Assembly (NCBI GenBank): GCA_040285745.1
Contig: JAUFOR010000004.1
Location: forward strand, 434,001 to 498,000
Source of the DNA: Barthelona sp. PCE
Lineage: Eukaryota
Length of the DNA: 64,000 bases
Direction of reading: 5' to 3'
Below, one piece after another: positions 4,157-53,504 of this stretch. The position numbers were made by a program, and so were the translations under genes. The notes under the pieces were generated by a model. It was not told the origin of the DNA. It ran no database searches and worked only from the letters and a program-made list of their open reading frames with translations. How positions within the stretch are numbered: the stretch's first letter is position 1; every line of letters starts with the position of its first letter.

Positions 4157-5019
4157 TTATGAGAGCATCATACGTACGAACTCATCATAAGAGATCTTAC
4201 CATCACCGTTTGAATCGGCTTCGCTAATCATCTCATCAATCTCGTTAGGGGAAAGCTTCTCACCCAACTGACACATGACAAAACGTAACTCATCAGCGGA
4301 GATGACACCGTTGTTATCCTTATCGAAAACACGGAAAGCTTCACGAACAGCATCTTCCGAATCGTTCTCAGCCATTTTGTGGGACATCATAGCGAGGAAC
4401 TCGGGGAAGTCAATGGTACCGTTACCATCAGCATCAATCTCGTTAATCTAAACGTTAGGTTATAAGAGAAAAAAAATATTGTGGATAAACATACCATATC
4501 ACGGAGCTCGGCGTTAGAAGGGTTCTGGCCAAGAGCGCGCATTACGACTGACAATTCTGAGATGGAAATGCTGCCTAAAAGTTAGTTTTCAGAATTAGAA
4601 AATAGGATTCTCAAAAAAAATCCCGTTTTTGAAACAAACCATCGTTGTTCTAAATGTTAAATACTATTGTTTGAAAAAAAGAGCGAAACTCTTCAAAAAA
4701 AAAACATACCTTATCGAAAAGAGAAAAGGCTTCCTTGAACTCGGCGATCTGATCTGCGGTGAGGGCTTCAGTATAAAAGTTAGTTGAAAATATAACTGTA
4801 TGCGCAAAACAGTTGAAAAAGAGCACATTAAGCATTTTGTCCAAACATTTTTTGGCAGCAATGTATGCCTCATGGTGTGAACTCCATTGCAAACAAAGCA
4901 ATATGGCAAATAGCAAAAGAGTACAAAGAAAATTTTAAACATTACACCCTCTTTGTATTTAGCCAGTAAGAGGTGCTCACAGCTCCAAGTAGCGTCACAC
5001 AAACTAATTAACATACCAT
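4157..5019 (-). CDS. CaM: Calmodulin, 148 aa; exons 5019-5017, 4772-4710, 4649-4640, 4574-4495, 4447-4157
   Basis: Spliced product [73 protein letters not shown]...[10 protein letters not shown]. Four EF-hands; exon total 447 nt. Confidence 0.95.
4448..4494 (-). other. Calmodulin intron 4, 47 nt
   Basis: GTATGT...CTAAC-GTTT-AG. Confidence 0.95.
4575..4639 (-). other. Calmodulin intron 3, 65 nt
   Basis: GTTTGT...CTAAC-TTTT-AG. Confidence 0.92.
4650..4709 (-). other. Calmodulin intron 2, 60 nt
   Basis: GTATGT...TTAAC-ATTT-AG. Confidence 0.93.
4773..5016 (-). other. Calmodulin intron 1, 244 nt, apparent GT-AT
   Basis: ATG|GTATGT ... CTAAC-TTTT-AT|ACT GAA GCC. Confidence 0.75.
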
Positions 5020-5574: not shown

Positions 5575-7644
5575 ATGCCAAGGATTAAAAAATTTGAGGA
5601 GGGGCTATTTGTAAGGATTTCACAGTCAGGGGGTCACCTTTCCGTTGAAAATAATGCTATCAAAATTTGGGACGGGGATGTTACGTCCTATGACAACATA
5701 CCGGATGCTCTCTGTGAGAAATCACGTCTCTACGGTCATGTAGCCACAGAAAAGAGACTTTTATTAGATTGTGAAGGAAGAGTGTTTCCAAGAGGTGCAC
5801 GACGTGCAATATATGATTGTCATCTCATATATGAATCAGTTGAAACGGGTAATCCAGGGAAATATACCATTCGCATGATGAAAGAAGGAGAAGAAGTAGT
5901 AGAACAAGAGATTAATTTTGAACAGCTTAAGCCATTCATCAGAATCAGAATTGCTCTCTTGAACAAGGATCATCTTCTTATAACAGCCACACATGAGAGC
6001 GATAATTATTTTGGAGAAGCGACAAGTGCTTATATATTTAACTTTGATGGACGCCATCGCATGTTAGGAGAGTATGCCGCTTATTCCAATAATTTCAATA
6101 GTTTTGGCATGATTTTGTTCTCGAATTATACGATGAACAGATGTTATGAGCATTTTGTTTATAACTTTACACCCGACGATATTGATACAGATTATAATCC
6201 CAATATTAAGACAGTAACAGGGTTTGATGAGCAAATGGCATACTGTGCGAATTCAGATTGTTGCGCTATGTATAAGTTCCGTGAAGGATTTGAAAATTTT
6301 TTACTTTTTGATCAGGCTGGAAATTGTCGTGATATTGTTCAAGATTTTCCGCTTTTGAAGGATGCACCCGATGCCACATGTCCCAGTTACTTCTTTTTGT
6401 ATAGATTAAGTACTCAAGTATTGGAAATGGTTACCATTTCCAACCAACAATTCTCCCACATTTCGGTCAGGAATAATGTTTTAAGGATAACAAAAGGTAG
6501 CCTTGGGTGCGACACTCTCGTCGGAACACATGTCGGAATCGATCTCAACTGTATTGAGTATCAGAATTCTAATTACGAATGGATTGGTCGTAATGTTTTC
6601 ACTGGTCTGTTTGATCGAGTTCAATTCATGAGAGAGGATGTGATACTTCTCTCCATCGAGGACATTTCACCTGAAAGAGTTGGTAGTAACGGTTTTATTG
6701 AATGCATGAATTCAGGATATGTTAAACATTTTTTGTTGTTGAGGCATGATGTTGTGATGACACTAAATTACGCCTTAAATTGCAAAATCACCAAGGTGTA
6801 CCCTTCTGAAGGCGGTGACGCACTGGTTGTCTACTATAAGATGTATGAAAGTAGTACTGGTTACACAGATATGCAGAAAGTTGTGTTCAAAATTGATGGC
6901 ACAGTTTTACATGAGGAGTTACCGTCTTTATATCAGTCTGATCGTATCATACAAGGGAAACCGTTCTCAGTTTACCACGGTGCTGAGGGTGTTCGTGTTT
7001 CGCTTGGCACTACATTGTTATACGAGGAAGATAATACGGGAGCGGGTACAGTTCAGTCAGTTTCATCTGGCAGCAATGATACAATAGCGTTTGAGTTTAA
7101 AGGAATTGTTCACTTTTTAAGGATTTCTCAGGAAGGATTCGTTTTACAGCATTTACAGATGGACGGAACACGTGTTCGTCTTTGTCACTGGTTCATAGCA
7201 GAGGATACACAGCTCGCGCTGGTCGAGTGTGACAGTAGGATACTGTTGTATTCTGTTAACTGGGAGGTTGGCAGGCTTTCCCAGCCATGTGATATTACTC
7301 TTTTATGTAGTCATGGTTTTATGGGGAATCAGCAGATATTCATTAATGAAAGTGCAATTTTATTCGATTTGAATACACATACTATATCACTTGATTGCGA
7401 TGGAGATCCTTTTGTGAAAAATTCAGTTGATTCTCTACCATCTTGTTCAATAGACGGGATAGGATACCTTCCCCGTCGTGATGTCGGACAAAAGGTAACG
7501 TTTGATGATGATACTAAAACATATGATGTTGTTGAATATGATTATGAAAGCAACGTTGAAAACATAACCCATCACCATGTACCAACGTTTGTGGCTAATG
7601 CTGATGTATTCAGTTTTTCTATCCCTATTCAAGAAGTGAATTAG
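5575..7644 (+). CDS. Hypothetical beta-rich protein, 'MPR' family member 1 (~689 aa)
   Basis: Long ORF. Start MPRIKK at 5575 chosen by analogy with paralogue N-termini; the ORF is open further upstream. Confidence 0.75.
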   Translation: MPRIKKFEEGLFVRISQSGGHLSVENNAIKIWDGDVTSYDNIPDALCEKSRLYGHVATEKRLLLDCEGRVFPRGARRAIYDCHLIYESVETGNPGKYTIRMMKEGEEVVEQEINFEQLKPFIRIRIALLNKDHLLITATHESDNYFGEATSAYIFNFDGRHRMLGEYAAYSNNFNSFGMILFSNYTMNRCYEHFVYNFTPDDIDTDYNPNIKTVTGFDEQMAYCANSDCCAMYKFREGFENFLLFDQAGNCRDIVQDFPLLKDAPDATCPSYFFLYRLSTQVLEMVTISNQQFSHISVRNNVLRITKGSLGCDTLVGTHVGIDLNCIEYQNSNYEWIGRNVFTGLFDRVQFMREDVILLSIEDISPERVGSNGFIECMNSGYVKHFLLLRHDVVMTLNYALNCKITKVYPSEGGDALVVYYKMYESSTGYTDMQKVVFKIDGTVLHEELPSLYQSDRIIQGKPFSVYHGAEGVRVSLGTTLLYEEDNTGAGTVQSVSSGSNDTIAFEFKGIVHFLRISQEGFVLQHLQMDGTRVRLCHWFIAEDTQLALVECDSRILLYSVNWEVGRLSQPCDITLLCSHGFMGNQQIFINESAILFDLNTHTISLDCDGDPFVKNSVDSLPSCSIDGIGYLPRRDVGQKVTFDDDTKTYDVVEYDYESNVENITHHHVPTFVANADVFSFSIPIQEVN

Positions 7645-11841: not shown

Positions 11842-14238
11842 ATGTCTATTGTCGAGAAACTTGAGAAATTCCTCATGCTGCTGAGGTCATGCAAGACGAT
11901 TAGTGATTTGAATAACATCAACTCGGAAGCAACTTTCGAAACCTTGATTACAGCTGTAGGAGAGCAAGGAGAGATGGCTTCCATGGTTGCATATACACTT
12001 TGCTCTGATTTCTGGGGTGAGTACATAAGAATATCAGAGGACATCAGTGTTACGCATGATATTTTCCCCTTTATTCAAGATCTATCATTTTCTTTGCACG
12101 AATACTTAGACGACAGCCTTGAAGAGCACGTTTATTTCGTATCCACACAGTTTGAGCATATTTTATCTTGTGATTTAAATCAGGCATTTAGTAATTCATT
12201 TAGTGATAAAGTAACTCACGTTTTGGAGCATGCTTCCAGTTTTATTGAGCTTGAAAGCATTAAGCAGCGGTTTGGCGACCACATTCTCGTATCCCGCGTG
12301 CGTTCATTGGTTAAAAGACTTGGAATAATTGAATTGTTGAGACAAGATCCTTTCAATTATGCTGAGTTTAACACAGCAATCAACGATTCGTTCAAGCTCT
12401 TTAGCGGGGCGCAGATGAACAACATTGCTGTGCATCTTTACAATCGTGAAGCATTCGAGCAGGTGAACACTGTTGTATCCCTGCTGTTGTATGACAACGT
12501 GTTTAAGATGTATGTAGATTCGAACGTCCGCACCGCTACGCTTCTGAGGTTGAAGGCAAACGCACTTTTTGAGCTTAAACGTTTCATGGATGCCAGTGCT
12601 GTTATTAATGAAAGTTTGCAGTTACTTCCCCATGGAGCTGGTATTCATCTCATGCTAAAGATTGAGGCGTATACTGACGCCGCACTAACAGTATCAGGTG
12701 TTAAGCAGTTATATGATATGAACGAAGATGGGCTGGTTGATGATATTTTCAATATTTTACACAAATGCAAAAGATATGGCGCATTGAAAGCAGCCGCAGG
12801 CGCAGCACTGGATGCCGTTGACCGACCACAGACGAAGCAAAAACTGCGTTGTTGGCTCGCTTTGTGTCTTTTGGAGGCTCTGCTGCAAGGATTCAACAAA
12901 GTTAGCACGGACGATTTGGGAGCAATATATGACGGTGCATGTCAACATTTGGCACAGGTGGAAGGAGAGATAGACCATCCTGTCCTGAACTCTATTGCAA
13001 GTGTCTTGAATCATGAATATATTGACGAGTTTAATGAAGCTGCAGAGCAACTTGCTGGGTTTGGAGAGGTTTTCTGTGCCGACGAACGGCGCTCCGCATT
13101 CACATACAGGCGGTGTTACACTCTACTGGAACGAGGTGAGGTCCATCGTGCCAAAGAGATCTTGCAGAAATCGCCCCATGCATTGCTTGAATTCAAACTA
13201 GCATGTAGGGTAGGTGACACCAAGTGGTGCACTGCCGCATTTGAGCGTGCTATTTGTGGTGTCAAGGAATCCAGCGATAGTTTTTGGTCGCGATCGAAGG
13301 AAACTTACAACAAACCTGTTCTTTCCATTCTCAATTCATTGGGAGAGCCGGTGAGGCGTACAAGCTCAGTAACTGGCCCAGATTCCGTCGCAGATAGCCT
13401 CTTCTTTTGTGCTAACGAAGCACAGGCATCCAACATGATTGGTGTTTTTTCCGACTGTCTCATTGCCGCTCTAGCAATGGATCTCCCCAGGGATACCAAC
13501 AGCAGCGTTGTGGAGAACATATTGGATGTGTGTGGGGAATGGGATAAGCAAAGACTAATTCACATCATGCTGTACGTTCTCGAGAGATTGTGGTCTGGCG
13601 GCATTGAGCTGTCTCATGAGACGGCGTACAACTGCGCAGCACAATGTTGGAACACGAGTATATCAGTTGATGAATATAGCGATGAGCTGACACTGCTCAC
13701 AATTGCATTTTCGTGCATGTGTAATATGCCAATTCACCAGGCGTACATCAAGGCAGCAATGTCACACCCTGGATCATCATTCGTTGCACAAGCGTGTAAG
13801 TTGTCGGGTATTGGTGTTCTGACATCGACTGAACTCAATGAGACTGAACTGTCAGAAGCGCCATTGCATATGCGGGTCTTCTTCATCCTATCTAACCCGG
13901 AACTTGGTATCGCCATCAACGACTGGGTCGTCTGGGACGCAGATATCGCAGAGTTTTCATGTCATGTAATTGTTCATATGGTGAGGAATCAAAAGCTCAA
14001 GAACATCAAGTATTTGGAGACTATCATTAAGATTATCGCTGAGAACGTCTCAGATACAGGTAGTGTGAAGGGACTTGTCGCAGAACTTTGGAATAAGGGT
14101 GCGCATCTTTTTGAAATGTCGTATGGCCCGCTTAGTTTGGAGTATATGCGTTTGAGTCTGGAGTTGGCAACAGCCTTTGATGTCATGGGTGCTATGCGCA
14201 AGCACCTCCAGGATACATACTTTTCTCTGATTGCCTGA
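11842..14238 (+). CDS. ZIP4/SPO22/TEX11-like meiotic TPR scaffold
   Basis: Helical TPR protein. LRLKANAL...GIHLMLKI, AAQCWN and C-terminal ELWNKGAHLF...SLEYMRLSLEL...LQDTYFSL resemble TEX11/ZIP4 blocks. The start codon is uncertain. Confidence 0.65.
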   Translation: MSIVEKLEKFLMLLRSCKTISDLNNINSEATFETLITAVGEQGEMASMVAYTLCSDFWGEYIRISEDISVTHDIFPFIQDLSFSLHEYLDDSLEEHVYFVSTQFEHILSCDLNQAFSNSFSDKVTHVLEHASSFIELESIKQRFGDHILVSRVRSLVKRLGIIELLRQDPFNYAEFNTAINDSFKLFSGAQMNNIAVHLYNREAFEQVNTVVSLLLYDNVFKMYVDSNVRTATLLRLKANALFELKRFMDASAVINESLQLLPHGAGIHLMLKIEAYTDAALTVSGVKQLYDMNEDGLVDDIFNILHKCKRYGALKAAAGAALDAVDRPQTKQKLRCWLALCLLEALLQGFNKVSTDDLGAIYDGACQHLAQVEGEIDHPVLNSIASVLNHEYIDEFNEAAEQLAGFGEVFCADERRSAFTYRRCYTLLERGEVHRAKEILQKSPHALLEFKLACRVGDTKWCTAAFERAICGVKESSDSFWSRSKETYNKPVLSILNSLGEPVRRTSSVTGPDSVADSLFFCANEAQASNMIGVFSDCLIAALAMDLPRDTNSSVVENILDVCGEWDKQRLIHIMLYVLERLWSGGIELSHETAYNCAAQCWNTSISVDEYSDELTLLTIAFSCMCNMPIHQAYIKAAMSHPGSSFVAQACKLSGIGVLTSTELNETELSEAPLHMRVFFILSNPELGIAINDWVVWDADIAEFSCHVIVHMVRNQKLKNIKYLETIIKIIAENVSDTGSVKGLVAELWNKGAHLFEMSYGPLSLEYMRLSLELATAFDVMGAMRKHLQDTYFSLIA

Positions 14239-14266
14239 ATTGAGTAAAAATTAAATAATTTATTTT

Positions 14267-15262
14267 CTAAAAAGGATCCATTCTCAACATCCTCTCCCGC
14301 ACAATTGCAGCTAAAATAAACTTATCTTTTAACATTAAAAACAGTTTACGTGGATTAGGATCTTTAGGAATAGCAACTGGTCCAATGTAAAAAGTGTTTA
14401 ATCCTTCAATACTAATCCAAACATCAGCATAAGCAAACCTACACTCAGTATGAACTGTCCTCGGGGGCTTCACAAGAACACTGATTAACTCTCTAGGATC
14501 CATGTGTGCATGATGCAAATCAAGGTATTCCAAAACAACTTTAATTATACAATCTGTAGCAATATCTAATGTGTCTCCGGGGAAGTTAGACGGCCTCTGC
14601 TTCTTGTATGACCAACCAGTTAGCTTCTCTGGCATAATACGATGACTTGGCACCATTTCTTTTTTCTTTTTCCTTCTACGTTTGGGGTTGCTTAAGTTTT
14701 GTAGCATCGGTGGTCGCTCCATCACGATCTCAGTAGGAGAATCAATGCGTTTCTGTTTTTTCCGCAATGTTGGCTCATCATCAACTCTTCTTAGCCTTTT
14801 TCGCATATGTTTAATAGTATCTGAGACATGTTCCTGAATCTCACTCAGTTGGTTTAATTTCCTGTCTGTGTAGTAGTTCGGTGGGTATTGTTGAGTGACA
14901 AATTGTGGTGCATTTTTAACGTATCCGTGACCGAGCTTCTTTTTCTTCTTTTTTCCAACTGTCCTCTTCTTTTTCCGCCTTTTTTTCCCATTAACAGTAG
15001 TCTTTGGCTTGGTTAAATCGAGGAAATAAGGTGATCTGTGCTTTTTATACTCATCAGAAAGTGAAATCTTATTTTTTTCTAATTTTTTCGTCTGTTTCAT
15101 CTTTGAAGTTATTGTAGGCACAGAATAGTTCATCTTTGTCAACTTAGATGAAGACTTTAGAGTTTTCTTACGTTGTTTTTTACGTGCTTTTTCAATAGGT
15201 TGAGGAAAGTATATGCTCTTCGGAAATGCTCCATACGAACCTCCTAAACCCGTCCCATACAT
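14267..15262 (-). CDS. Hypothetical basic (Lys/Arg-rich) protein
   Basis: 331-aa ORF filling the gap between neighbours, with NLS-like basic runs and a small globular C-terminal region. Confidence 0.75.
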   Translation of the reverse strand: MYGTGLGGSYGAFPKSIYFPQPIEKARKKQRKKTLKSSSKLTKMNYSVPTITSKMKQTKKLEKNKISLSDEYKKHRSPYFLDLTKPKTTVNGKKRRKKKRTVGKKKKKKLGHGYVKNAPQFVTQQYPPNYYTDRKLNQLSEIQEHVSDTIKHMRKRLRRVDDEPTLRKKQKRIDSPTEIVMERPPMLQNLSNPKRRRKKKKEMVPSHRIMPEKLTGWSYKKQRPSNFPGDTLDIATDCIIKVVLEYLDLHHAHMDPRELISVLVKPPRTVHTECRFAYADVWISIEGLNTFYIGPVAIPKDPNPRKLFLMLKDKFILAAIVRERMLRMDPF

Positions 15263-15395
15263 GTGATTTAATCCCCCGCGCGTAAGCTTAAAGTGCTTAC
15301 CAAATAAAGAGGTTGATTTTAAAAAAACAACCTTTATTCTGGCTATTCAAATTTTTCGATCGTTGGAGAGGTGAACACCGACAACAACCGAAATA

Positions 15396-15947
15396 ATGTT
15401 TGCGATTTCTATACCAGGGCTTCCTTTGAATACTGAATACACTGATCTATCTGACACATCCTTTGAATTCCTTATTAACGATGTTGTGAATCCGAAATAT
15501 GGAACGGTCTTCCTCATCGATCACGAAGACGTGTCTCACGATGTAGTTTGTGCTGTATATCTTGAAACACCATTCACCGATGGTGAATATTCTTTAGTGG
15601 GTTACATAGGTGCGAGTAACCCCACACTCCTCATGCGCATTGATGGTGGTCCTGACAAGGATGAGATGTTTAATATTCGTGTTGGGTTAGAAATTTGTGA
15701 TAAAGAAAGTGTTCGAGAAGCAATTCAAGAACAACATGAGAATTTAATTGAAGAAAACACTGAATTGAACGATTTACTAGATGGAATAGGTTCTAAAATT
15801 GTGAGCAATCTTCAAGACTATCTCGAAAGTTATGCCGTAGATGTCGAAGATATTACCGTTATTCCTTTAGCTTCATTAGATGAATGGGTGGATAATTTCA
15901 ACAGAAAAATTCGATTAAATCCACGTTTTTGGGAAGATTTCGAATAA
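15396..15947 (+). CDS. Hikeshi/OPI10 family protein (Hsp70 nuclear import carrier)
   Basis: N-terminal MFAISIPG, LVGYIGASNPT and C-terminal IPLASLDEWVDNFNRKIRLNPRFW. Confidence 0.85.
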   Translation: MFAISIPGLPLNTEYTDLSDTSFEFLINDVVNPKYGTVFLIDHEDVSHDVVCAVYLETPFTDGEYSLVGYIGASNPTLLMRIDGGPDKDEMFNIRVGLEICDKESVREAIQEQHENLIEENTELNDLLDGIGSKIVSNLQDYLESYAVDVEDITVIPLASLDEWVDNFNRKIRLNPRFWEDFE

Positions 15948-15953
15948 AAGAAC

Positions 15954-17090
15954 TTAAAGATGAGCAAGAATAGAAATATCTTTTGCGATATTCTTGCTTT
16001 CGCTTTTAACTTTCTTCAGTCGATTGTTAAAACTGGTCATCATTTCACTCTCCCATGCTTGACTATGTGTCACACAATAAACCATCTCACAGCACTTAAC
16101 ATTGACACCATCACCTAGCTCTATTGGGAAATAACAAAGTTGAATTTTTTTTCTCAAGCTCTTGACTTTTGACAACCATTTCTTCAATGCTTTCTTCTCT
16201 GACATGAGTGTTTTGATGACTTGAGCATTTTTAACGTGTTGTTCTTGCAACAAAATCGCCTTCTCCAAAGCTTCAAACAGTTTATCTTTTCCGTCTCTCT
16301 CATTGATTTCAACTATCTCCACTACTTCACCATCTTCAACAACATTTTCAGCTGCTTTTTCCATTACTTCACTGGGTTCTTCCACAATTTCCTTCATTTC
16401 TACATCTACCTCGTTGGCAAGAGGTGTAGCATCTGCTTCAATCTTTGCGAATTCTGGGAACTCTTCCTGTGTGGTTGGAAGTGGCATAGGTGGTCCATCA
16501 TTTGTTTTTAATGGACTCCAAGGATTACTGAGCTCAGGCGATGGAGCTAGCTCTGTTTCAGTTGTTTTAAGAACGTTCACCATGATCTCCTCCTTCTTAA
16601 CATCCGGCTCCACTATTGGCTTCTCAACAACAGTCTCTTCCACTGACGGAGATTTTTTACCCTTCCCTTTCTTTGATCTGAATGCTGATGCAGGAACAAG
16701 TTTCTTCCGAATCAGGTCGCGCTTGACATGTTCACGTCCGCATTGGGTTGAACAGAAGAGAGAATCAGGTTGAGTTGCGTTTTTGCAGTTCTCTTTCTTA
16801 CATATGCTCGTAATGCCCTTGTCCTTACAAAAAGGACAAATAAATGTGTGTAATTCCTGTGCTTCTTGTGCTGTAATATTTAAACATTCGCAGTGGAACC
16901 ACTCTTCACATAAATCGCAACCTATCATTAGCGGTGTGATTTTTGAGGTTCTGCATATACAGTAGACATCAGGTGAGGTCTTCTGAACCTTCAGCGCAGG
17001 TTCTGTGGCGCTTACAGTTGAATCTTTGTGCTTTTTCTTATTCTAAGTGTTAGTTGTCAGGTTTACGTGTTAAAAAATATGTCATACCAT
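15954..17090 (-). CDS. SPP1: Spp1/CFP1-like PHD-finger COMPASS subunit, 363 aa; exons 17090-17088 and 17042-15954
   Basis: PHD finger YCICR...MIGCDLCEEWFHCEC...ICPFC, then C-x4-C...DSLFCSTQCGRE, and a C-terminal C..C..H..W motif. Confidence 0.82.
17043..17087 (-). other. Intron directly after the ATG, 45 nt
   Basis: ATG|GTATGA...CTAAC-ACTT-AG; in-frame stop upstream of the ATG. Confidence 0.88.
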
Positions 17091-37132: not shown

Positions 37133-40100
37133 CTAAATATTGTTCAAAAAATTTTCTTTCTTTCTTCTTTTTTTATGGTCTAATACTGATACCAAAGGGG
37201 CAGAAAGTGGTCTTTGTGCTACAAATTCACGTGTAATAAGACGAAAACTGCTAAAACTGGAATAAAACTGATCATTTGACACTCCGAAAACACCATTCGA
37301 ATCTCTGTAAAGAAATAATGGAAATTTGGTTTGAATATAACTAATAATATCGGAGCGTGTGTAAAATATTGGTATATTAAGACTGGCATAACAAACAGTG
37401 ACTTCATCGTTGTAATAGACTGACACAAACTCTTTAACCTCATTTTCTGAAGCACCACAGGAGCGCAGTAGTGTCTTGAGTTTTAAAGTTTTAAGTTTTG
37501 TAGAATTTAAAGACAAAAACATTGCTAAATGATTGTATAATAGTAGTAAATCAATCACTCTTGCTTTGCGAATAACTGTGGTAAAAAGAGAAAGTATAAG
37601 AGTTTGTCTGAGCGTAACATTGCAATTATCTATGGAATAAAACATGGAATCGTAGTGGTTAAATACCTGCAGTAACAATTGGATCGTGGAGTTGTGAAAA
37701 TTGCGAATATCATAATACAAGATAGTAGGGATATTGTGACGCAATTGCTTGTATACATTTTCTGTTAATAGAAAAACTACTCGTGGTGATAAAGAAGCGT
37801 CCATTGATTCAACGATTGCTGTGATATGTTGAATATCAATATACGTATCATGAAACTCAAGCTTAACGAACAGGCAATCATGTTTAGAAATTATTGACTG
37901 CTGTTCTGATGCTGTAAGCTGCATAAATTCACATAAATTAATTAAATTATAATCATCATTGATCATCAGTGACATGTATATAAAATTATCAGCAAGAGCA
38001 AAAGATACTGGTAATATCAAATTACATGAGGTTATAAATATATCTAACGGTTCATATGCAAACAAAGCCTTAACATTGAATATTTCAATGCTACAATGAT
38101 TAAAAATTGAAGCAAAAATGGTTGTACAAGGCTCACTAACATAATTTGGAGATGTAAAAGGGGACAATACTATACACCAAAGGACTAACTTGCACAACTT
38201 GTTAGAGTATGTGATATCAAGAGCAGTATCAATGGTAATGATTAGTTCAGCAACTGCCCTCGTCTCTGATTTAACTAGCTCAAAATTATTCAGATGTTTG
38301 GTACACTGTGAAAGATCATCATTTTTAGCAACCGCAATTTTGGTTTTCAAACACTCATTCAACAGTTCATGAGATAAATCAACGGCAGAAATCTTATTTT
38401 TCAACATCAAAGGAGAATCTACATCAAACGAATCATTACTCAACAACATACTAATATCTGTGATACATTTAGAGTCAATGAATACATTGTGTAGTACAAA
38501 TAAATAATACATCGCTGTCAATCTAAAGTGAACAGGTATTCTTAACAACTCAACTGATAATAGATCAAACAAAGCTGTTTTTGGATCCTCTTGCTGCATT
38601 AAATTACGGTACAACGTCAGGAAATGATGTACAGGATATACAAAAACGAAGTAATTATCAACAAATACAGAGAAAGCATCATTAAAATTGAACAAATGAT
38701 GGACAAACCGTAGAGAAAAAATTTCAGGGTGAGTTTTCACAGAACAATCAATGTTAAAAAAATCAACAAGAGCAAGTTCCTCATATATATCGTTTTTATG
38801 ATCATTTAGATTTGTATCAATAATGTTCATAAACCGTACAAAATCTAACGGTATTTTTTCCTTATTTTTGCCAAAAACACGGTCAATCTGCCTGGAAACA
38901 TCTTTCTTAGTATTTAAGAAACTTTCTCCAATTAGTAACAAATCATTGTAAATTATTGAAATTGAGGAGCGATAATTTGCACAACTATTAAAAACGGAAA
39001 TACGAATATTAGGTTCAATAGGAATGAATGCTCCTTGGAAGTGCACATGCTCTGTCTCTCTTGTGCGTTTTGCCTTCAACACAGCTTCTATTAGCGGTTC
39101 AAAAAATTCAAAATCTTCTAATGATGTCATATGAACAAAGAAAAACTTATTTTGAGCAAAATTAAAAATCTCTTTCCACTGCCATGGATGAATAATCATC
39201 TTAAATATATCAACAATAATAACTGGCGCAAAAATTGATTGAACAGATGTTTTTTCCATTTTCACTGGAGTTACCACATTACTTATCATGACAAACTCAC
39301 TAGCCATTGCATAATACAGCCTCATAATGCGAGCTAATAGTAATTGTTGTGAGAAAGGAATTGGATCATTGGAAAACGAAATGGGAAATAATATTGTCAA
39401 TGTAACTTCAATTACTTTAGCAATAATTGATGGGTCCATACCACTGCTGATCAAAAACTCAGTAATTATAGATTTAACAAGCGGTACGGTTACTGAGCTG
39501 ATCGCTAATTGATAGAAAGTTAAAAGCAAAGAACAGACTTGTACGTGTTTCATAATCTCATCAGATAATGTGACGACAGGAAATACCTTAATAAGCTGAT
39601 TAATAATTGTTTGCTGTTCGTCTATACTTGTTTTAAGGCTTCTTACATTATCTTTCAGGTACACGATCCGTTGCTCCAGTTCAACTTGCTTCCTAAAGAA
39701 GTCCTGAGCCTGTTTATGATCAACTAATTCGGAAACAGAAATACCAGTGCCCAAATGCTTTGCCAAAATCAATTTGTGTTTGTGTAACTGCTTTTTTAAA
39801 TCCACAAGCCTGGACTTTTGAATGGATATATCAACATTTAATGACTGTAATAAATTCTTTAAAGTAGTAAATCTATCTTGCGCAGATTTAATAATTTCAC
39901 AAAAGGAAGAAAACAAACCAAAGTAGTTTGACACATTGAGACATGTTGAGATATTCATACTATGCAAGACATCAACACTGGGAAAAGTTACACAGTCAAT
40001 TTCATTAAATTTGAAAGTACTATTACTTGAAATGATTTTTTTCGAACAAGAAATGAATATATCGATATATATTGAAAGATCTGAACTTAAATACTTGATT

Positions 40101-43100
40101 GATTTCAACATATCATCATTCAAAATACAATTCCGTCGATCTATTGAGATCAGCTCTTTTGACGGCAAGGGGAAATAACGAGATTTATCCCAATTATTCG
40201 TCATCCTGGAAACAATCATACCTTGAACATGTTCAGATATTATATTAGCTTGCACTTCAGTAGCAAAAAGTAAATAAAAAGTGTAAAGCGGATGAGCATG
40301 ATGTATCGATGATATTATCATTTGCCTAATCTTAGAATTGAACATACACACGTTGATAGTGCTACAATCGATAATAATAGCAGTTGGAACCTTTGGAGAA
40401 GTATCATAAGAAATACTTGCATTGAATTTTTGACTAACTAAACTTCCTTTCTCCAACGATAGTCGCAAAAGGTAAACAAATAATTCAGTTGAAAGTGAAG
40501 TTGTCTTTGACAAAGTGTTAAGTACAAATCCTACACATGATGAAGTATCCTGAATGTTTATCATAATCTTTAGAATGTCTTCATTACAGTGATACCAAGC
40601 ACGGGAGTGTATGTCATGTACATTATTGTTAAACAAAGTAAACAGTTGTTCAGTTGATAAATACTTGTTGTTAAATATGATAAGAGGATCATTCAACTCT
40701 TGTTTCGATAATGGCATAATGTCCAGTAATTTTGTGATCATCAAATGACATTGATCATTTGAATCACAGAATTTTAATCGAAGATGGGTGCTAAATGCTC
40801 GCAACGCCCGATAATCAAGTTTTGTACCACCACTAATCATAGCCTCAATCAATTTAAAGGTACTTAGACATTCGTACAGCATAGATACATCATAACATTC
40901 GAGAGCATGATTGTAAAAAAGGTGTAAAGCAGATGCGAAACAATAATATATTTGCTTTCTAAACAAATACATAACATCATGCAGGTCAGGAGAACGTTCT
41001 AACAGGATTGATGTCATTATAGTCATGCTTTCTGCAAAATTTTTCAAGATATTATGCTCCTCCAAGTTAAAAAACCTGTTGCTGTAAATTGTATATAACT
41101 CTGAAGGGTTACTATTCCAACATATCAATAAATGTTTCCTAACACACAAGAATTTCTCTTCACTTCCTGAAACATCAAGTAAAACATTAGTACAATCCTC
41201 TAACAATCCACCAAAGTGAGCTTTTGGATAAGATATTTGTTTTGAATCCCAGATATTATCAACATCGAACAGAGTTGAAACAACAATATTTTTTGTGAAA
41301 GAAAAAGATCCATCAAGCACAATTGTTGAGGGAATATTCAAAATCTGTGAACCTATCAAATGGCTTAATACAATATACTGAAATGTAAGCATGTTTGAGT
41401 TAAGTAAAAAAATTTGTTCAAATGTGGTGGAACTTAACTTTCGGATCATTTGCTCCTGAGATATGGTCTCAAAAGATTGCAATTCTCCCGATTTCACTGA
41501 AATATAAGAGCCAAGTGCAGCAGTATTGAAAGGAGTACTTTCGATTTGATCAATCGAAAAATCAACTTGCTCAAAAACAATGAAGGGTGATAAATATGCA
41601 TAATTAACAGCATTTTTAGCAAATTTGAAATCTATTTCAAGATCGTTCCTTGTAGAACCTTCCAATCGAGAGTGAAGTAATCCTAAATATACCGTAACAG
41701 CAAAATGAAAAGCTACAAATCTATGATTCTTAAATTCAGAGTGTTTCCAAATTGTTCTAGAATAAAGATCCATTGCATCACAATAAAACTCCTTTAAATA
41801 CTCAACAGCTCGTTCAACAAGCTGATCTGATCCAAACTTACTTACTTCATCCTTAAATCGATGGATATAGTCGTCTAATACCTGTTCCTCCGAGATACAA
41901 AAGACGGGGGGCAGAGGTATTGCTTTAATATCACTAGTTTCATAAAATAATGGATTAATACTTTGAAGGGATAACATTTCATATCTATCAAATGAAGTAA
42001 ACACAGTAAACTTAAATCCAGTCTTTGCAATTATACATTCTGATAGTGGTGTGTTGTTAATTGCTGTATAATAATCATTAAAAAATTCTGAACTACAACA
42101 ATCTAACATTGTCATTTTAAACTCTATTCCAAGTCTTGGTAAAAATTCATTTAAAATACCCTCTACAACTGTGTAACGGATATCATGAGAAATAAGAGTT
42201 TGTATTGATATATGAACAGGAAAGCAGCATGTGATCGCGAATAAAAGACCATATAGACCACACTCATCATCACATCTACTACGATCCATGTGGCTTCTGA
42301 TGATTTCTAGAGGAGGAAACAATGGTAAGAATGGTACAAGGTCCTCAATTGAGTAATGATCAATGTTAGGGAAGAAGCTCTCATGCATTAGAGTAAAACT
42401 ATCTTTTGAAGACAAGTTTTTATACTGTTCAACGTGTTTAAACCCCTCAAAAGGCCACTCTAAGCAACTGAAGAACAAATTGAATAAAAATGATGCAAAT
42501 AGTTTCTCACTAAACTCATGTTCAGTAAACATAAAGCTAATAGACATAGCAATGGAGTTTGTTAATGATGAAGTATTATAAAGACCAAATAATCTTGAAA
42601 ATTCAGAAACATACTGATGAAGAAGTGTGCCATAAACTTGATGATCTTTTATCAAGAGCGCACAAAAAATCATACTAGGAGAAAGGCAAGATGATTCATT
42701 TTTGCAATAGGTGAAAGGAATAATGCTGTCACCAAAAAATGATACATCATAATATCGTTGAGAAGTAACAATAATAACTGCTCCTTTGGTGAAATAATTC
42801 TTAGATTCCATGCTGTTGATCCTTTCAACGGCTATTGGGATCAAAGGTGACTGAAGGAATATAACTAATAAGCTTTTTGAGCTGAACGTACGTTCTAATA
42901 ATGTAGTGAGGTTTGCTACTGACGTTTCTTCATTGTAATGAAAATACGACATATCTCGGAGCGAATAACAAGATAATACACTGAACATTCTTCTGGTTTC
43001 ATGATAATTGTTAGAGATAACAACAAAAAATCTGGAATCATCACATAACACAACCAAATCTCGCATTAATAAATGATAATTAGGTTCTGGAAGCAGTAAC

Positions 43101-46100
43101 TTATTTTTTGAAATGGCATATGGATGTATCAGTTCCATACCTGCTCTAAAAAATGTAGATAATCCAAATGAAATGTAAATAATGCAATTATCAATGGTGT
43201 ACGGCAGCATTTCAGGTGTGCTATGCGATAGACAAACATCATCAGATGTCAAATGAACCAGAACGAAAGACTCTAAAATCATTAAAAAATCTGAATGTCG
43301 ACGCACATTAAGGATTTCATCGATTCTCGCGTACAAGTTATACACTGTCACAATAATATTTTTAGCCCATTCACCTTCAATAGCAGAATAATTATTTCCA
43401 ATAGTTGTCAAAAAATTAACGCTTTCTTTTAACTTTTGTGCTTTAACAATGTACTGTTCAATATTTCCATTTCTAATTGATTCCTCAAGATCCAACAACT
43501 CCACTGTAATTAAACGTACAATGACCAAAAATCCACAAAACCTAGGTAAATGGATGAATGCTTTCATATCCAAATCAGAAAGATTGGTACTCATTTCGAT
43601 AACGTTAGTTGTCAATGCCAAAGAAATACAATCATGAATATCAGAAATAAATTGAGGTGCAACAAACCCTGCATCACTTATAAAACCACTGTCAATCACA
43701 GGTTTATAAGGGGAACAAAATTCAAGATACTCGTCTTGAGTATTCCACACGCCAACAATACTATCTTTCTCCCATCGAATTGAGTGTATGTGTGGAAGGT
43801 GCATAGTAACCATGTGATGACTGAGAGAACCGCTAGCCTTGATGGTGTAAAGAAGATCACAAGCTTGATGGAATTGTTCAGTATTAAAAATTACAGGCCA
43901 TGAGCTGCTAGAAAAATGCTTGTTCGCCAAAGTATCACAGAGCTTATTTAATTTGCTACACCATGTTTTAATCGTCATTTTCGGTAAAACTGGTGTGCAT
44001 TGAATCTTACCATCTCTATATTTACCAAAAAATTCTTGGGCTCTAATTTTACCAATTAGAACACATTCATCAACGTTAATTGAACTGAATTGAGATCCAT
44101 TCTTGGGTAAAGTATTAACCTTTTCTTTAAACAAAAAAGAATTTTTCTTAATAATTGAAAACCATATTTCCAAAGCATTCTGTACTTCATGAACAGTATC
44201 ATGAAATATGTAAGAAAACTGAAATAATGCACATAAATGTTCAGTAACATTAATAAAAAACCCAATATCGCTTAAAACATCATCTAAACCATTCAAGAAT
44301 ATTGTGAACTCATTCATCATACTGAGAGTTGTTTCAGTATAAATATGTGACATTGACAGATGCTCAAATATCTCATATGAATCGTTTCTGCTGTTTAATA
44401 ATTGAGTTTGTAACATCTTAATACAATCTAAACATAAAAATTGAAACCCATTTGTCATGAAAACATCAATATGACTGTCAGCAACAATATTAATAATTTT
44501 CTTCACCTGTATTTGAAGGGAATTTTCAAATTCTAACATTCTAACAGCTTTGTAAAATGATGATTCCTTTTCAGGACTGCAAATAAAGCTGATGAAATTC
44601 CGACCATGGACAACTTCACCTACCATTAGCTCAAACATCGAACTCTGACGAGTACTAAGACATGAATCTTGTAATGTAGTTATATATGGTAAAACTGCAA
44701 TTAAAGCTTCTCTTAACAGAACAAGCAGATTATTTATGTTATTGAAAATAGCACAGCTATCAAAATCAAAAGATGGGACACTTTTCAGGGACAGTTCAGT
44801 GTAAGGAGACTCAAATAACGATAGTATTTGCATGAATACGCGGTTGATATCAGAAAACAAAACATAATGTTCTCTTAACTGAAAGTTCTCCAATTCATTA
44901 ACAGCTGGATGCGATAGTGAAAATGAATAAAACTCCCTACAAAGGTGAGAAAAATGCTGGATGTCACTGCATGTTTCCATGGCTAGTTCATACTTCTTTT
45001 TAATATCACCCAAACAACCCAAAACGACACGCCCAACGTGAGAATCACTAAACTTTGACATTAATGCGCTGTAAACAACAAACGGATGAATACTTTTGTA
45101 AGATTTAAACAATGGGGAAAGTTTAGCCAAAAACTCAATATCATCAACAATTTTATCAAGATTCCTCTTCTGTACCTTTAAAAAACTTGAATATTGCCTT
45201 TCATAGTACTGACTAAATCTATTATAAAGTTTAAAAACATCAGAATATCGTTGTTCTAATACATCATACATTGTTTTAAATGCACTAAATAATGCTGAGA
45301 TGCTGTACAAAGTACCGTATTTCTTAATAAATACTGAATGCATATCATCTTCACCGTTACAAGCATTTAACAATTGAAAAACTGTTGATTGTGTCACATT
45401 AATCGTCTCACTACCAAAAATAATCGCTTTTTGGATTGGATCTTGGCACATTTTGACTATAACTGCCATATAATCATCATATAGTTTGTATTTTTCTAAA
45501 AAGGGGATTACATTCGTCTTAAAAAAGGTAAAAGATGTTTCTTCAGATACTAATTCAAGAAATTCAATTGAAAGTATTGAATCAAAATACGATAAAAATT
45601 CAGAAAAAACAATACTAAAACGATATATAGAGTTCCTTACGGTCTCGGGCGCCTTTAATATGATTGCGCTGCTGCATAAATCAACCAAACTTTCTTCTGT
45701 ATCAGTAATCTCTATAAGTACATTGTTCAAAAATCCTTCAAGGTAATACTGACGAATTTTGGTTGTCATTTCATAGTATGATTCGTAAAGCACATCACAA
45801 TTCACCAACAATCTCGTTACAATACTTTCAAAATCGTCATTTTTCGGTATTTCACCAGCTTTAGGAAGCTGGTTCAAAAAAACTTGCATTTTGGTCAGAT
45901 GTTCCTTGTTGCTTGAGATACAGCCATTGAAGAATGCTGATACTTTTAAGTTGAACTTCTGTAAAGTCACAACGAATTTAAAAGATGGTGATATACACAA
46001 TAAACTTACAAAATTCTTTATGTGATTGATTAAAGTCTGATGTAAAATTGTATAATATAAAGTTAATTCCTGAAAAATATCGACACTAACAAAAGAAATT

Positions 46101-48316
46101 GTAATTAATCGAGAACAACTGACTAATTCCTTTAAAAACCGTTGTAAATCAATAGATACTATAATTTCAACACGACGTTGAAATAATGCAATGATCACAC
46201 CAACAATTTTTTCACAATCAAATGAATCGCACAACATAGAACGATCTACACTTATATTTATGTCTTCTATGAGTGAATCATACATTGCATTTAATTGAGA
46301 AAGATAATCATCTAATTCGACTCTGAACCATTCTGTAAATTGTTGTACTGATGCAAATTGAATGTCTTTTAATCTAGGAAACGAACCTGGTATTATTGCA
46401 AAAACGCTATCGAGCATATTTGTACAAAAAACAGTCAAATCGTGAATCAAATTATCACAATTCCTCAGTGAATTGTACAGAGATCTATCACTGGAAAGAT
46501 TAACCTTTCCCAATATTTTAAGAACTCGAGCAAAAAGTACTTTAAAAACATATGACATACCGTTGACCTTGGTTGACTTGTTAATAGCAAGAACTCTTGA
46601 ATGCATCAGAGTCTTGTATGATTGAAAACGTCGAACACGAATTAGTGAAGCATAAACTTCCCTATATTCAAAGTTTGTAACTTCTCCACCACAAATTGTT
46701 GGATAAAGAAGTAAAAGGGCAAAATCATTGATTGTGAACGGAGCAATGGCCTTACTGAATGATTTTGATACCCAACTCATACTTAAGATAGGTTTCTTGA
46801 ATTTCTGAAGGTGATTTGATCTGAATACTTGTAGTCTAGTTTTTGCCTGCTTGACATGGGAATCTATCAAGTGCATCAACTCGTCCACTAACCCTGTGCG
46901 GAATAATGATAAACGATCAGCATGAAAAACTATACAAGAGAAAAAATTCTTTAAAAGATCCAACAAATACACAGAATGAAGTAAATTAGAAATTTCCCCT
47001 CGCAATTGGCTCCCTTCTCTAACAATCAAACAAGGACTAAACAGTTGTTCTTTATCAAAATCTTTTCTAATCATTTCAATGTATTGTTCAACAATAAAGA
47101 GTAAAACTTTCCTGAAACCAACAACTTTATCGATGCGGTAGATGATAAGATAAGTAAGAAAAAAGAAAGAGTGTTTATATCGAATGAATAGATTCTTAAT
47201 CTTTAAAATCTTTTGAAAATCACTTATAAATCCTGCAGCTACAACCTTTTCTTGTCTGTGAATGTGTAACAAAGTTGAGGATACATATACTTGAACTGAT
47301 TTTATGTTGATAGTAGAACAATCAAAATCTATAGAAGAAATTCTATTAAATAGTTCTAAAACTGTTGCAAAATTTTTAAAATAAAAACTAAAAATAGTAA
47401 TTCGATGATTTTGTTGAAATTGAAATAAAGAACTAAAATATTTATCCAATGGTAAAACAGCAGTAAGTAATTGCATATGTTTGATGAAATAATTAACCAA
47501 ATGAGAATCATGGCTAATATATTGCTTAATTGAATTAAATATAATCTGCAAACGACCTTTTTTCTCAACTGTACCAATTTGTTGACAAAACATCTTGCGC
47601 ACACTTAAACCTTCAAGTGGAGACGGTACTTGACAATATCTTATGCTACAGTATACAATATATTCCATAAACCCATTTAAAATTGAATGATAAGAATCAA
47701 ATAATTTCTGATGCTTCATTTCAGTTACAATTCCATAAATTTGACTAAATGAAATTGAATCAGTTAGTTGATGAAATTCCATTTTTCCACAGTACACTGC
47801 AACCAGCCCATTAACTAGTGTTTGGAATATATTTTGACACTTGTCTAACCAGGAAATATTCACATTATCGATAGAGAAATTGTTAAAAATGTTCTGATAG
47901 TGAAGTAATACACAAGACCAAACCAGCACCATACCTGAAAATGCAGTAAATGATGTAAACCGAACATCAAAATCGGCACACGCCAGCTTTATACGTAAAA
48001 AATGAGCTACCTGGCACAACATATTGAGATTGTGTAATGCTGCTTCGTAGTAACACTCTTCACATCTATCATCATCAAAAAACATCATCATACTTCCCAA
48101 AAGATCAAATAAACCTGGCAAATTGCTTCTGCTTATCTCAAGTGACGAGAAAAAATTTGTAACATTGCTTTTATCCAAAAGATTATTGCCCAGAGATCTC
48201 TCGTGGTCAAAAGAGGTACTGTGTATTGTTGTCACCAGATAAAATTGCTTTTTAAAAACGCTAAATTGAGTTACTAAAAACTCTCCATTATCTTGCAATT
48301 TTGAATGATTTTCCAT
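37133..48316 (-). CDS. Giant (~3700 aa) highly divergent dynein-heavy-chain-like protein lacking Walker A motifs
   Basis: 11.2-kb uninterrupted ORF. Linker-like, AAA1-like, AAA3-like and coiled-coil segments occur in dynein order. The ORF is secure; the family call is tentative. Confidence 0.6.
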   Translation of the reverse strand: MENHSKLQDNGEFLVTQFSVFKKQFYLVTTIHSTSFDHERSLGNNLLDKSNVTNFFSSLEISRSNLPGLFDLLGSMMMFFDDDRCEECYYEAALHNLNMLCQVAHFLRIKLACADFDVRFTSFTAFSGMVLVWSCVLLHYQNIFNNFSIDNVNISWLDKCQNIFQTLVNGLVAVYCGKMEFHQLTDSISFSQIYGIVTEMKHQKLFDSYHSILNGFMEYIVYCSIRYCQVPSPLEGLSVRKMFCQQIGTVEKKGRLQIIFNSIKQYISHDSHLVNYFIKHMQLLTAVLPLDKYFSSLFQFQQNHRITIFSFYFKNFATVLELFNRISSIDFDCSTINIKSVQVYVSSTLLHIHRQEKVVAAGFISDFQKILKIKNLFIRYKHSFFFLTYLIIYRIDKVVGFRKVLLFIVEQYIEMIRKDFDKEQLFSPCLIVREGSQLRGEISNLLHSVYLLDLLKNFFSCIVFHADRLSLFRTGLVDELMHLIDSHVKQAKTRLQVFRSNHLQKFKKPILSMSWVSKSFSKAIAPFTINDFALLLLYPTICGGEVTNFEYREVYASLIRVRRFQSYKTLMHSRVLAINKSTKVNGMSYVFKVLFARVLKILGKVNLSSDRSLYNSLRNCDNLIHDLTVFCTNMLDSVFAIIPGSFPRLKDIQFASVQQFTEWFRVELDDYLSQLNAMYDSLIEDINISVDRSMLCDSFDCEKIVGVIIALFQRRVEIIVSIDLQRFLKELVSCSRLITISFVSVDIFQELTLYYTILHQTLINHIKNFVSLLCISPSFKFVVTLQKFNLKVSAFFNGCISSNKEHLTKMQVFLNQLPKAGEIPKNDDFESIVTRLLVNCDVLYESYYEMTTKIRQYYLEGFLNNVLIEITDTEESLVDLCSSAIILKAPETVRNSIYRFSIVFSEFLSYFDSILSIEFLELVSEETSFTFFKTNVIPFLEKYKLYDDYMAVIVKMCQDPIQKAIIFGSETINVTQSTVFQLLNACNGEDDMHSVFIKKYGTLYSISALFSAFKTMYDVLEQRYSDVFKLYNRFSQYYERQYSSFLKVQKRNLDKIVDDIEFLAKLSPLFKSYKSIHPFVVYSALMSKFSDSHVGRVVLGCLGDIKKKYELAMETCSDIQHFSHLCREFYSFSLSHPAVNELENFQLREHYVLFSDINRVFMQILSLFESPYTELSLKSVPSFDFDSCAIFNNINNLLVLLREALIAVLPYITTLQDSCLSTRQSSMFELMVGEVVHGRNFISFICSPEKESSFYKAVRMLEFENSLQIQVKKIINIVADSHIDVFMTNGFQFLCLDCIKMLQTQLLNSRNDSYEIFEHLSMSHIYTETTLSMMNEFTIFLNGLDDVLSDIGFFINVTEHLCALFQFSYIFHDTVHEVQNALEIWFSIIKKNSFLFKEKVNTLPKNGSQFSSINVDECVLIGKIRAQEFFGKYRDGKIQCTPVLPKMTIKTWCSKLNKLCDTLANKHFSSSSWPVIFNTEQFHQACDLLYTIKASGSLSHHMVTMHLPHIHSIRWEKDSIVGVWNTQDEYLEFCSPYKPVIDSGFISDAGFVAPQFISDIHDCISLALTTNVIEMSTNLSDLDMKAFIHLPRFCGFLVIVRLITVELLDLEESIRNGNIEQYIVKAQKLKESVNFLTTIGNNYSAIEGEWAKNIIVTVYNLYARIDEILNVRRHSDFLMILESFVLVHLTSDDVCLSHSTPEMLPYTIDNCIIYISFGLSTFFRAGMELIHPYAISKNKLLLPEPNYHLLMRDLVVLCDDSRFFVVISNNYHETRRMFSVLSCYSLRDMSYFHYNEETSVANLTTLLERTFSSKSLLVIFLQSPLIPIAVERINSMESKNYFTKGAVIIVTSQRYYDVSFFGDSIIPFTYCKNESSCLSPSMIFCALLIKDHQVYGTLLHQYVSEFSRLFGLYNTSSLTNSIAMSISFMFTEHEFSEKLFASFLFNLFFSCLEWPFEGFKHVEQYKNLSSKDSFTLMHESFFPNIDHYSIEDLVPFLPLFPPLEIIRSHMDRSRCDDECGLYGLLFAITCCFPVHISIQTLISHDIRYTVVEGILNEFLPRLGIEFKMTMLDCCSSEFFNDYYTAINNTPLSECIIAKTGFKFTVFTSFDRYEMLSLQSINPLFYETSDIKAIPLPPVFCISEEQVLDDYIHRFKDEVSKFGSDQLVERAVEYLKEFYCDAMDLYSRTIWKHSEFKNHRFVAFHFAVTVYLGLLHSRLEGSTRNDLEIDFKFAKNAVNYAYLSPFIVFEQVDFSIDQIESTPFNTAALGSYISVKSGELQSFETISQEQMIRKLSSTTFEQIFLLNSNMLTFQYIVLSHLIGSQILNIPSTIVLDGSFSFTKNIVVSTLFDVDNIWDSKQISYPKAHFGGLLEDCTNVLLDVSGSEEKFLCVRKHLLICWNSNPSELYTIYSNRFFNLEEHNILKNFAESMTIMTSILLERSPDLHDVMYLFRKQIYYCFASALHLFYNHALECYDVSMLYECLSTFKLIEAMISGGTKLDYRALRAFSTHLRLKFCDSNDQCHLMITKLLDIMPLSKQELNDPLIIFNNKYLSTEQLFTLFNNNVHDIHSRAWYHCNEDILKIMINIQDTSSCVGFVLNTLSKTTSLSTELFVYLLRLSLEKGSLVSQKFNASISYDTSPKVPTAIIIDCSTINVCMFNSKIRQMIISSIHHAHPLYTFYLLFATEVQANIISEHVQGMIVSRMTNNWDKSRYFPLPSKELISIDRRNCILNDDMLKSIKYLSSDLSIYIDIFISCSKKIISSNSTFKFNEIDCVTFPSVDVLHSMNISTCLNVSNYFGLFSSFCEIIKSAQDRFTTLKNLLQSLNVDISIQKSRLVDLKKQLHKHKLILAKHLGTGISVSELVDHKQAQDFFRKQVELEQRIVYLKDNVRSLKTSIDEQQTIINQLIKVFPVVTLSDEIMKHVQVCSLLLTFYQLAISSVTVPLVKSIITEFLISSGMDPSIIAKVIEVTLTILFPISFSNDPIPFSQQLLLARIMRLYYAMASEFVMISNVVTPVKMEKTSVQSIFAPVIIVDIFKMIIHPWQWKEIFNFAQNKFFFVHMTSLEDFEFFEPLIEAVLKAKRTRETEHVHFQGAFIPIEPNIRISVFNSCANYRSSISIIYNDLLLIGESFLNTKKDVSRQIDRVFGKNKEKIPLDFVRFMNIIDTNLNDHKNDIYEELALVDFFNIDCSVKTHPEIFSLRFVHHLFNFNDAFSVFVDNYFVFVYPVHHFLTLYRNLMQQEDPKTALFDLLSVELLRIPVHFRLTAMYYLFVLHNVFIDSKCITDISMLLSNDSFDVDSPLMLKNKISAVDLSHELLNECLKTKIAVAKNDDLSQCTKHLNNFELVKSETRAVAELIITIDTALDITYSNKLCKLVLWCIVLSPFTSPNYVSEPCTTIFASIFNHCSIEIFNVKALFAYEPLDIFITSCNLILPVSFALADNFIYMSLMINDDYNLINLCEFMQLTASEQQSIISKHDCLFVKLEFHDTYIDIQHITAIVESMDASLSPRVVFLLTENVYKQLRHNIPTILYYDIRNFHNSTIQLLLQVFNHYDSMFYSIDNCNVTLRQTLILSLFTTVIRKARVIDLLLLYNHLAMFLSLNSTKLKTLKLKTLLRSCGASENEVKEFVSVYYNDEVTVCYASLNIPIFYTRSDIISYIQTKFPLFLYRDSNGVFGVSNDQFYSSFSSFRLITREFVAQRPLSAPLVSVLDHKKRRKKENFLNNI

Positions 48317-48528
48317 GTAAAATGCTTGACTTTTAATCAATTAATTGAACAGAGTCATATATCCTGCTATATATTATATCACCTGAAATGGAATAAAATT
48401 GTGTTACCAGAATTTCTACCCTTTTTTCTGCTTGAGGTGTTTTGATCACCGCAATGAGAGTTTTTTACAATTTTGACAGTTTTTATTCCCATTTTTAACC
48501 ACAGTTTTTTTTTTTTCTACAACATACT

Positions 48529-53487: not shown

Positions 53488-53504
53488 GATAATGGCTTGT
53501 TTAT

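Follow-up and report, generated by a model that had tools for sequence, protein, structure and literature searches.

Three metamonads have been described in which the branch site and the 3' splice site are fused into a single motif, which reads ACTAAC-ACAY-AG in Trichomonas vaginalis (PMC13548475), [AC]CT[GA]AC-[AC]CAC-AG in Giardia, and ACTAACAAACTAG in Spironucleus salmonicida (PMC3916229). Introns that begin with GT and end with AT have also been reported. In Giardia duodenalis, 23 of 70 transcriptomes showed a "Type A" GT-AT intron of 30 nt in the DinF gene, which is described as "rarely" spliced (1.3%) (PMC10711314). Human and mouse share a conserved U2-type GT-AT intron in DGCR2; of the U12 type, seven GT-AT introns have been listed, and the AT-AN and GT-AT combinations are splicing-competent (PMC1557818). 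When Prp18 is absent, yeast spliceosomes use CAU and UAU more than any other non-G site, a use that is helped by upstream poly(U) and exonic adenosines; Prp18 and Slu7 are dispensable where the distance between branch site and 3' splice site is short (PMC10711555). Cryo-EM work describes recognition of the terminal G through pairing with the first intron base. Our literature search found no published analysis of Barthelona introns, and the main text of the genome report (PMC11316075) speaks of introns in its methods only.

Barthelona sp. PCE, a barthelonid metamonad, is a free-living and very small protist with a genome of 10.2 Mb (PMC11316075). In this study, we examine a 64,000-nt stretch of that genome (the window), whose source was recognized when a query with exon 5 of the gene discussed below returned a 100% identical NCBI protein, PCE1_001963. 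A sequence-only reading of the window had drawn attention to intron 1 of the calmodulin gene and placed its end at AT, at the position where AG would be expected. Our main reading agrees: positions 5016-4773 (-) may be a genuine spliceosomal intron with a real T as its last base, spliced at the AT site, a possibility that we place just short of even.

The predicted minus-strand gene with exons between 5019 and 4157 is, on the strength of its protein matches, the calmodulin of Barthelona. The database protein P0001 is PCE1_001963 (168 aa), and the calmodulins ranked next in the protein search share at most 73% identity with it. Pfam EF-hand_1 matches four stretches of the calmodulin (E 1e-39) and EF-hand_7 matches two pairs. 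Removing four introns, with 5017 joined to 4772, gives a 447-nt coding sequence for 148 aa with four EF-hands, a length that fits the 148-149 or so residues typical of calmodulin, which the annotated 168-aa form does not. Aligned with eight calmodulins from diverse eukaryotes, the spliced model is 62-68% identical to them. Nine residues precede the conserved IAEFKEAF, and after the AT join the initiator Met from ATG 5019 falls in the start column of all eight. The expectation that this join would restore the canonical calmodulin start was thus borne out, the 148-aa product being colinear with 8/8 calmodulins. From residue 2 to residue 148 the spliced model is identical to residues 22-168 of P0001, so that the two differ at the 5' end only and introns 2-4, together with the microexon, are confirmed. 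A protein search for close calmodulin relatives with an orthologous intron returned Barthelona's own protein at 100% and the rest at 73% identity or less. A metagenome scan for calmodulin relatives gave 76 loci, all likewise at or below 73% and none barthelonid-like. The features of the locus are collected in Table 1.

Table 1. Features of the calmodulin locus, alternative boundaries of its first intron, and three further introns of the window (a slash marks a splice junction).
Feature	Position	Strand	Remarks
Proposed start codon, one-codon first exon	5019-5017	-	directly abuts GTATGT; context AAAATG
5' splice site GTATGT, preceded by G	5016-5011	-	same as donors of calmodulin introns 2 and 4
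Proposed intron 1, GT...AT, 244 nt	5016-4773	-	GC 0.35
Rival donor GTTTGT, preceded by A	5004-4999	-	with ATG 5014-5012 gives a 10-nt first exon
In-frame ATG within proposed intron 1, start of NCBI model	4835-4833	-	168 aa
Branch-site motif CTAAC, 233 nt into proposed intron 1	4783-4779	-	pentamer shared with introns 3 and 4 and with the one at 17053
Spacer TTTT, four bases	4778-4775	-	identical to spacer of calmodulin intron 3
Terminal dinucleotide AT	4774-4773	-	AG in its place in the six other introns
First AG past branch site	4767-4766	-	11 nt after CTAAC; out of frame with GTATGT donor, in frame with GTTTGT donor
Exon 2, 21 codons, with the conserved start of helix A	4772-4710	-	opens ACT GAA GCC; GC 0.49; coding score 0.56/codon
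Intron 2, GTATGT...TTAAC-ATTT-AG	4709-4650	-	60 nt; supported by P0001
Microexon, 10 nt	4649-4640	-	required to reproduce P0001; between 60- and 65-nt introns
Intron 3, GTTTGT...CTAAC-TTTT-AG	4639-4575	-	65 nt; supported by P0001
Exon 4	4574-4495	-	supported by P0001
Intron 4, GTATGT...CTAAC-GTTT-AG	4494-4448	-	supported by P0001
Exon 5 including stop codon	4447-4157	-	100% match in NCBI protein
Rival path: second ATG, donor GTTTGT, AG	ATG 5014-5012; donor 5004; AG 4767-4766	-	148 aa
Rival path (weaker variant): first ATG, donor GTTAAT, AG	ATG 5019; donor 5012; AG 4767-4766	-	147 aa
Rival path: donor GTATGT, distal AG	donor 5016; AG 4750-4749	-	140 aa; one residue ahead of IAEFKEAF
Intron ATG/GTATGA...CTAAC-ACTT-AG	17087-17043	-	P0121
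Intron GTATGA...TTAAC-GTTT-AG	54276-54237	-	P0122
Intron GTATGA...CTGAT-CTTT-AG	2439-2332	-	adenylate-kinase ORF needs start codon

The standard for judging intron 1 comes from the other introns of the window. An intron scan anchored on YTRAY-N4-AG produced 137 donor/acceptor pairs; an ORF filter kept 62, and six are credible. All six of these introns end in YTRAY-NNTT-AG, in line with the YTRAY-N4-AG of the sequence-only reading, with a spacing of four bases in 6/6, a rule that is drawn from a small sample over 64 kb. Each has a G before the donor, then GT[AT]TG[TA], and each ends in TTAG. Database proteins support five of the six: P0001 supports three, P0121 (363 aa) equals Met plus a 362-codon ORF and hence carries an annotated one-codon first exon, and P0122 (263 aa) crosses the junction at 54276. 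The sixth intron supplies a start codon to the adenylate-kinase ORF, whose Pfam domain begins from residue 2. Two scans without a fixed spacing gave no further convincing intron, one of them in its 79 rows and the other among the matches listed of its 937.

Two rules describe the six comparators equally well. The sequence-only reading had held that the 3' splice site is chosen by its distance from the branch point; the fixed spacing stands, but in 6/6 comparators no AG follows the branch site earlier than the one at this spacing, so they fit a distance ruler and a first-AG rule alike. As a trait of metamonads, the ruler has already been published and is not a new inference. The further idea of that reading, that the weak site may be regulatory, is speculative.

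Several features of the surrounding window may be recorded here. ORFs, taken from stop to stop, overlap or follow one another at intervals of 0-30 nt (14238-14267, 15346-15375, 15947-15954, 7641-7644), and the genome is extremely compact. Giant unbroken ORFs lie at 37133-48340 (-), with 3735 codons, and at 56869-63999 (-), with at least 2376 codons, the latter running off the window. The ORFs at 52636-53526 (-) and 53505-54236 (-) are in different frames and overlap by 22 nt; they look like two genes rather than a frameshift because P0122 stops with the upstream one. The region from the calmodulin ATG 5019 to the neighbouring plus-strand ORF spans several hundred nucleotides. The PHD-finger gene at 17043-17090 (-) has an ATG/GTATGA one-codon first exon followed by a 45-nt intron, and is annotated so in P0121.

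Measured against these introns, calmodulin intron 1 carries a GTATGT-like 5' splice site (G/GTATGT at 5016) and a CTRAC pentamer four bases ahead of its terminal dinucleotide (CTAAC-TTTT, 4783-4775), but has AT, not AG, at its end in the assembly. The earlier description of CTAAC-TTTT followed directly by AT at the AG position is seen as such at 4783-4773 (-). With GT and AT termini and otherwise optimal signals, the predicted intron would belong to the rare GT-AT class. Minor, U12-type introns have the consensus [AG]TATCCTT at the 5' splice site and a TCCTTAAC-like branch site. We rejected this type for intron 1, whose donor reads GTATGTTA and whose sequence ahead of the branch motif reads TTCAACTAAC. 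Moving the junction by one base was also rejected, as the termini would become TA...TA. An Rfam search for a hidden element in intron 1 gave two matches, far under threshold and both outside the intron; a fold test of the intron revealed nothing unusual (z-score 0.21); and a comparison of 25 start contexts yielded no informative promoter or start motif for choosing among ATG 5019, 5014 and 4835.

We asked how often such a combination arises in the window at large. Eight copies of YTRAY-NNTT-AG are present, where 30 Markov simulations predict 6.5; six of the eight are those of the introns and two lie elsewhere. The strict form YTAAC-NNTT-AG occurs five times, always within introns. Its counterpart with another final base, YTAAC-NNTT-A[not G], occurs four times on both strands, and one of the four, the calmodulin site, has a G/GT[AT]TG[AT] donor 25-300 nt upstream. 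The looser YTRAY-NNTT-A[not G] has 32 sites in the window that form 16 donor/site pairs, two of them in calmodulin; the other 14 lie in long unbroken ORFs, opposite an ORF, or beside short frames, and no splice at any of these 14 would link a start codon with a long ORF. Because its donor is fused to the start codon, because it lies in frame at the canonical calmodulin start, and because the pairing of motif and donor is rare, we take the calmodulin site as a real, or until very recently real, 3' splice-site element, one base off the consensus. It is unlikely that ATG/GTATGT should coincide with an in-frame CTAAC-TTTT-A by chance. At 54816 (-), 63908 (-) and 20648 (+), ATG plus GTATG[TA] recurs within long ORFs or opposite them, no branch motif follows at the distance of an intron, and chance is the probable origin of these strings.

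A mechanism for such a site can be outlined from what its bases would permit. Intron 1 would directly follow the calmodulin start codon, with the local consensus G/GTATGT as its donor, and its 3' end would be a metamonad-type fused element of CTAAC, four bases and two more, with T in place of G as the last base. The junction ATG/ACT would be picked by its fixed distance of 7 nt from the branch adenosine, a tether that may be so short that only that phosphate can dock for exon ligation. The A at -2 would still pair with the branch adenosine; the G-G contact of the last and first intron bases would be lost, and the second step would be made less efficient by this, not abolished. A terminal U should indeed cost efficiency, since the terminal G normally pairs with the first intron base. 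The outcome would be a calmodulin of canonical length, 148 aa, and the 168-aa model that starts in the intron would be what gene prediction confined to GT-AG yields. The cause might be that factors for second-step fidelity (Prp18, Slu7, U2AF35) were lost or changed. That GT-AT splicing of Barthelona calmodulin is constitutive, with the 3' splice site set by the 7-nt tether and the terminal G dispensable, is a tentative proposal whose chances we rate as distinctly below even.

The deciding base is the last of the intron, a T that appears as A on the plus strand at 4773 in the assembly, which was built from Nanopore R9.5 reads and corrected with Illumina reads at 308x (PMC11316075). The same junction could be used if the T had arisen in assembly or polishing, or belonged to a minor allele, in which case the real intron would be an ordinary GTATGT...CTAAC-TTTT-AG. 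Such an error would explain why the site stands exactly one base from a perfect local consensus; the terminal G is near-invariant among spliceosomal introns, and Nanopore R9.5 assembly, even with Illumina correction, leaves some room for it. Against it stand the depth of that correction, the position of the base outside any long homopolymer, and the lack of broken long ORFs in the window, where ORFs reach 3735 codons; a substitution that fell on the one critical base would also be rare a priori. We consider an artefactual T quite unlikely. With the T genuine or artefactual, a real intron whose junction lies at the ruler position is, over all, moderately probable.

The public annotation takes another course at the 5' end. 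P0001 starts within the proposed intron 1, from the ATG at 4835, and so gains 21 hydrophobic residues (Met + 20). This N-terminal extension is absent from 8/8 other calmodulins, all of which begin at the column of P0001 residue 21. Its 63 nt (4773-4835) have a GC content of 0.29 and a T content of 0.48, beside 0.23-0.26 and 0.45-0.52 in introns 2-4 and 0.44-0.53 and 0.25-0.30 in the exons. Coding potential was scored as codon log-odds trained on the long ORFs of the window. Per codon, the calmodulin exons score 0.34-0.62 and the extension 0.08, which places the extension below 91% of true in-frame pieces and above 97% of off-frame coding pieces; this intermediate score leans toward non-coding but does not decide the matter. 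Judging from composition and alignment, the first 21 residues of PCE1_001963 are very probably translated intron, and its N-terminus is very probably wrong.

If the annotation were nevertheless correct, there would be no active intron 1. Calmodulin would start at ATG 4835 with a 20-residue hydrophobic N-terminal extension, and the splice signals would be either chance or a relic disabled by a G-to-T change. No stop interrupts the frame between 4934 and 4772, ATG 4835 lies in an A-rich context, and the extension does not score clearly negative for coding. This model is also the one adopted for PCE1_001963 by NCBI, from a pipeline of HISAT2, GeneMark-ET, AUGUSTUS and PASA that took RNA-seq mapping as input (PMC11316075). 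An internal start site is needed, however, as unspliced RNA read from ATG 5019 would encode three codons and then a stop. The extension, found in 0/8 other calmodulins, is intron-like in composition, and the model would require the improbable coincidence of signals described above. These gene callers accept canonical GT-AG introns only and could not have proposed the AT alternative. We therefore regard the absence of an active intron as unlikely.

A canonical GT-AG intron with other boundaries (ALTERNATIVES keeping GT-AG) would skip the AT at N4 and take the next usable AG. Three AGs, at 4797-4796, 4767-4766 and 4755-4754, would put a transcript spliced from the GTATGT donor out of frame. The claim of the sequence-only reading that the nearest AGs are out of frame holds for the GTATGT donor and fails for the GTTTGT donor at 5004, with which AG 4767-4766 is in frame; a GT-AG path to an equally long protein had thus been overlooked. 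Its further statement that the next in-frame AG (4750-4749) lacks a branch point and drops 8 aa proved accurate, there being no YTRAY four bases upstream. All three paths listed in Table 1 are in frame and open. The one from the second ATG keeps the canonical 9 residues ahead of IAEFKEAF and uses a donor with the sequence of that of intron 3, and an AG 11 nt beyond the branch motif, shared with its weaker variant, is usable in most eukaryotes. Yet a spacing other than four, an A or T before the donor, and a base other than T at acceptor -3 each occur in 0/6 confirmed introns. The second AUG would have to initiate 5 nt past the first, which opens a three-codon frame at ATG 5019, and the GTTTGT donor would face competition from the stronger GTATGT 12 nt upstream, which, joined to the same AG, would shift the frame to a stop after 33 codons. 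The path to AG 4750-4749 has no branch motif and cuts 8 residues at conserved positions. An annotation guided by RNA-seq should, moreover, catch any canonical junction of a gene as highly expressed as this; it did not, which suggests that strong read support for such a junction was lacking. Together, these points leave a canonical intron decidedly improbable. What probability remains beyond the four readings considered goes to other explanations.

The GT-AT reading is favoured because GGTATGT is that of introns 2 and 4 and CTAAC-TTTT-A that of intron 3, so that a single mismatch separates it from confirmed introns. It is favoured, too, because the pipeline modelled a one-codon exon in P0121 and no canonical intron here, as would fit a junction that it could not model; because the quality of the assembly looks high, given its Illumina depth and unbroken ORFs; and because there are precedents in the motif-bearing GT-AT intron of Giardia and in the non-G sites of yeast without Prp18. 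Counted against it are the terminal-G pairing described in cryo-EM work, the splicing of the Giardia GT-AT intron in 1.3% of reads, the canonical path with an equally long protein, the open frame from the annotated internal ATG, the coding score of the extension, and a set of only six comparators that is blind to ruler versus first AG.

If transcripts confirm the AT, calmodulin, a conserved and presumably essential gene, would present a natural 3' splice site that is productive without a G. The splicing machinery would then find the end of the intron by counting from the branch site, and the locus would allow a clean test of distance-based choice of the 3' splice site in reduced spliceosomes. 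In barthelonids and related organisms, introns of this kind will escape annotation pipelines restricted to GT-AG. Should reads show a G, what is left is an assembly error and a misannotated start.

Compared with the systems described at the outset, Barthelona shares with Trichomonas and Giardia a GTATGT-type donor and a CTRAC pentamer followed by four bases and AG (PMC13548475, PMC3916229), and its introns, like those described for the metamonad systems, are few, short and mostly toward the 5' end of the gene. It differs from them in its spacer, which is NNTT and not ACAC, in a looser pentamer (TTAAC, CTGAT), and in one AT end. The DinF intron of Giardia resembles calmodulin intron 1 as a GT-AT intron in a metamonad, of a class described as having a conserved branch-site motif; in contrast to DinF, the calmodulin AT would have to be a productive junction. 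The animal GT-AT introns, as reported, share the same termini with otherwise optimal signals; the Barthelona intron differs in its GTATGT donor, which is not of the U12 type, in its metamonad host and in its 7-nt distance from branch to junction. The Barthelona site, UUUUAU followed by A, is like the non-G sites of yeast, although their use in yeast is described as low-level error in a mutant and the site here would be a normal one in a wild-type cell. GT-AT introns are thus an already known rare class, of which a productive site in calmodulin would be a new instance.
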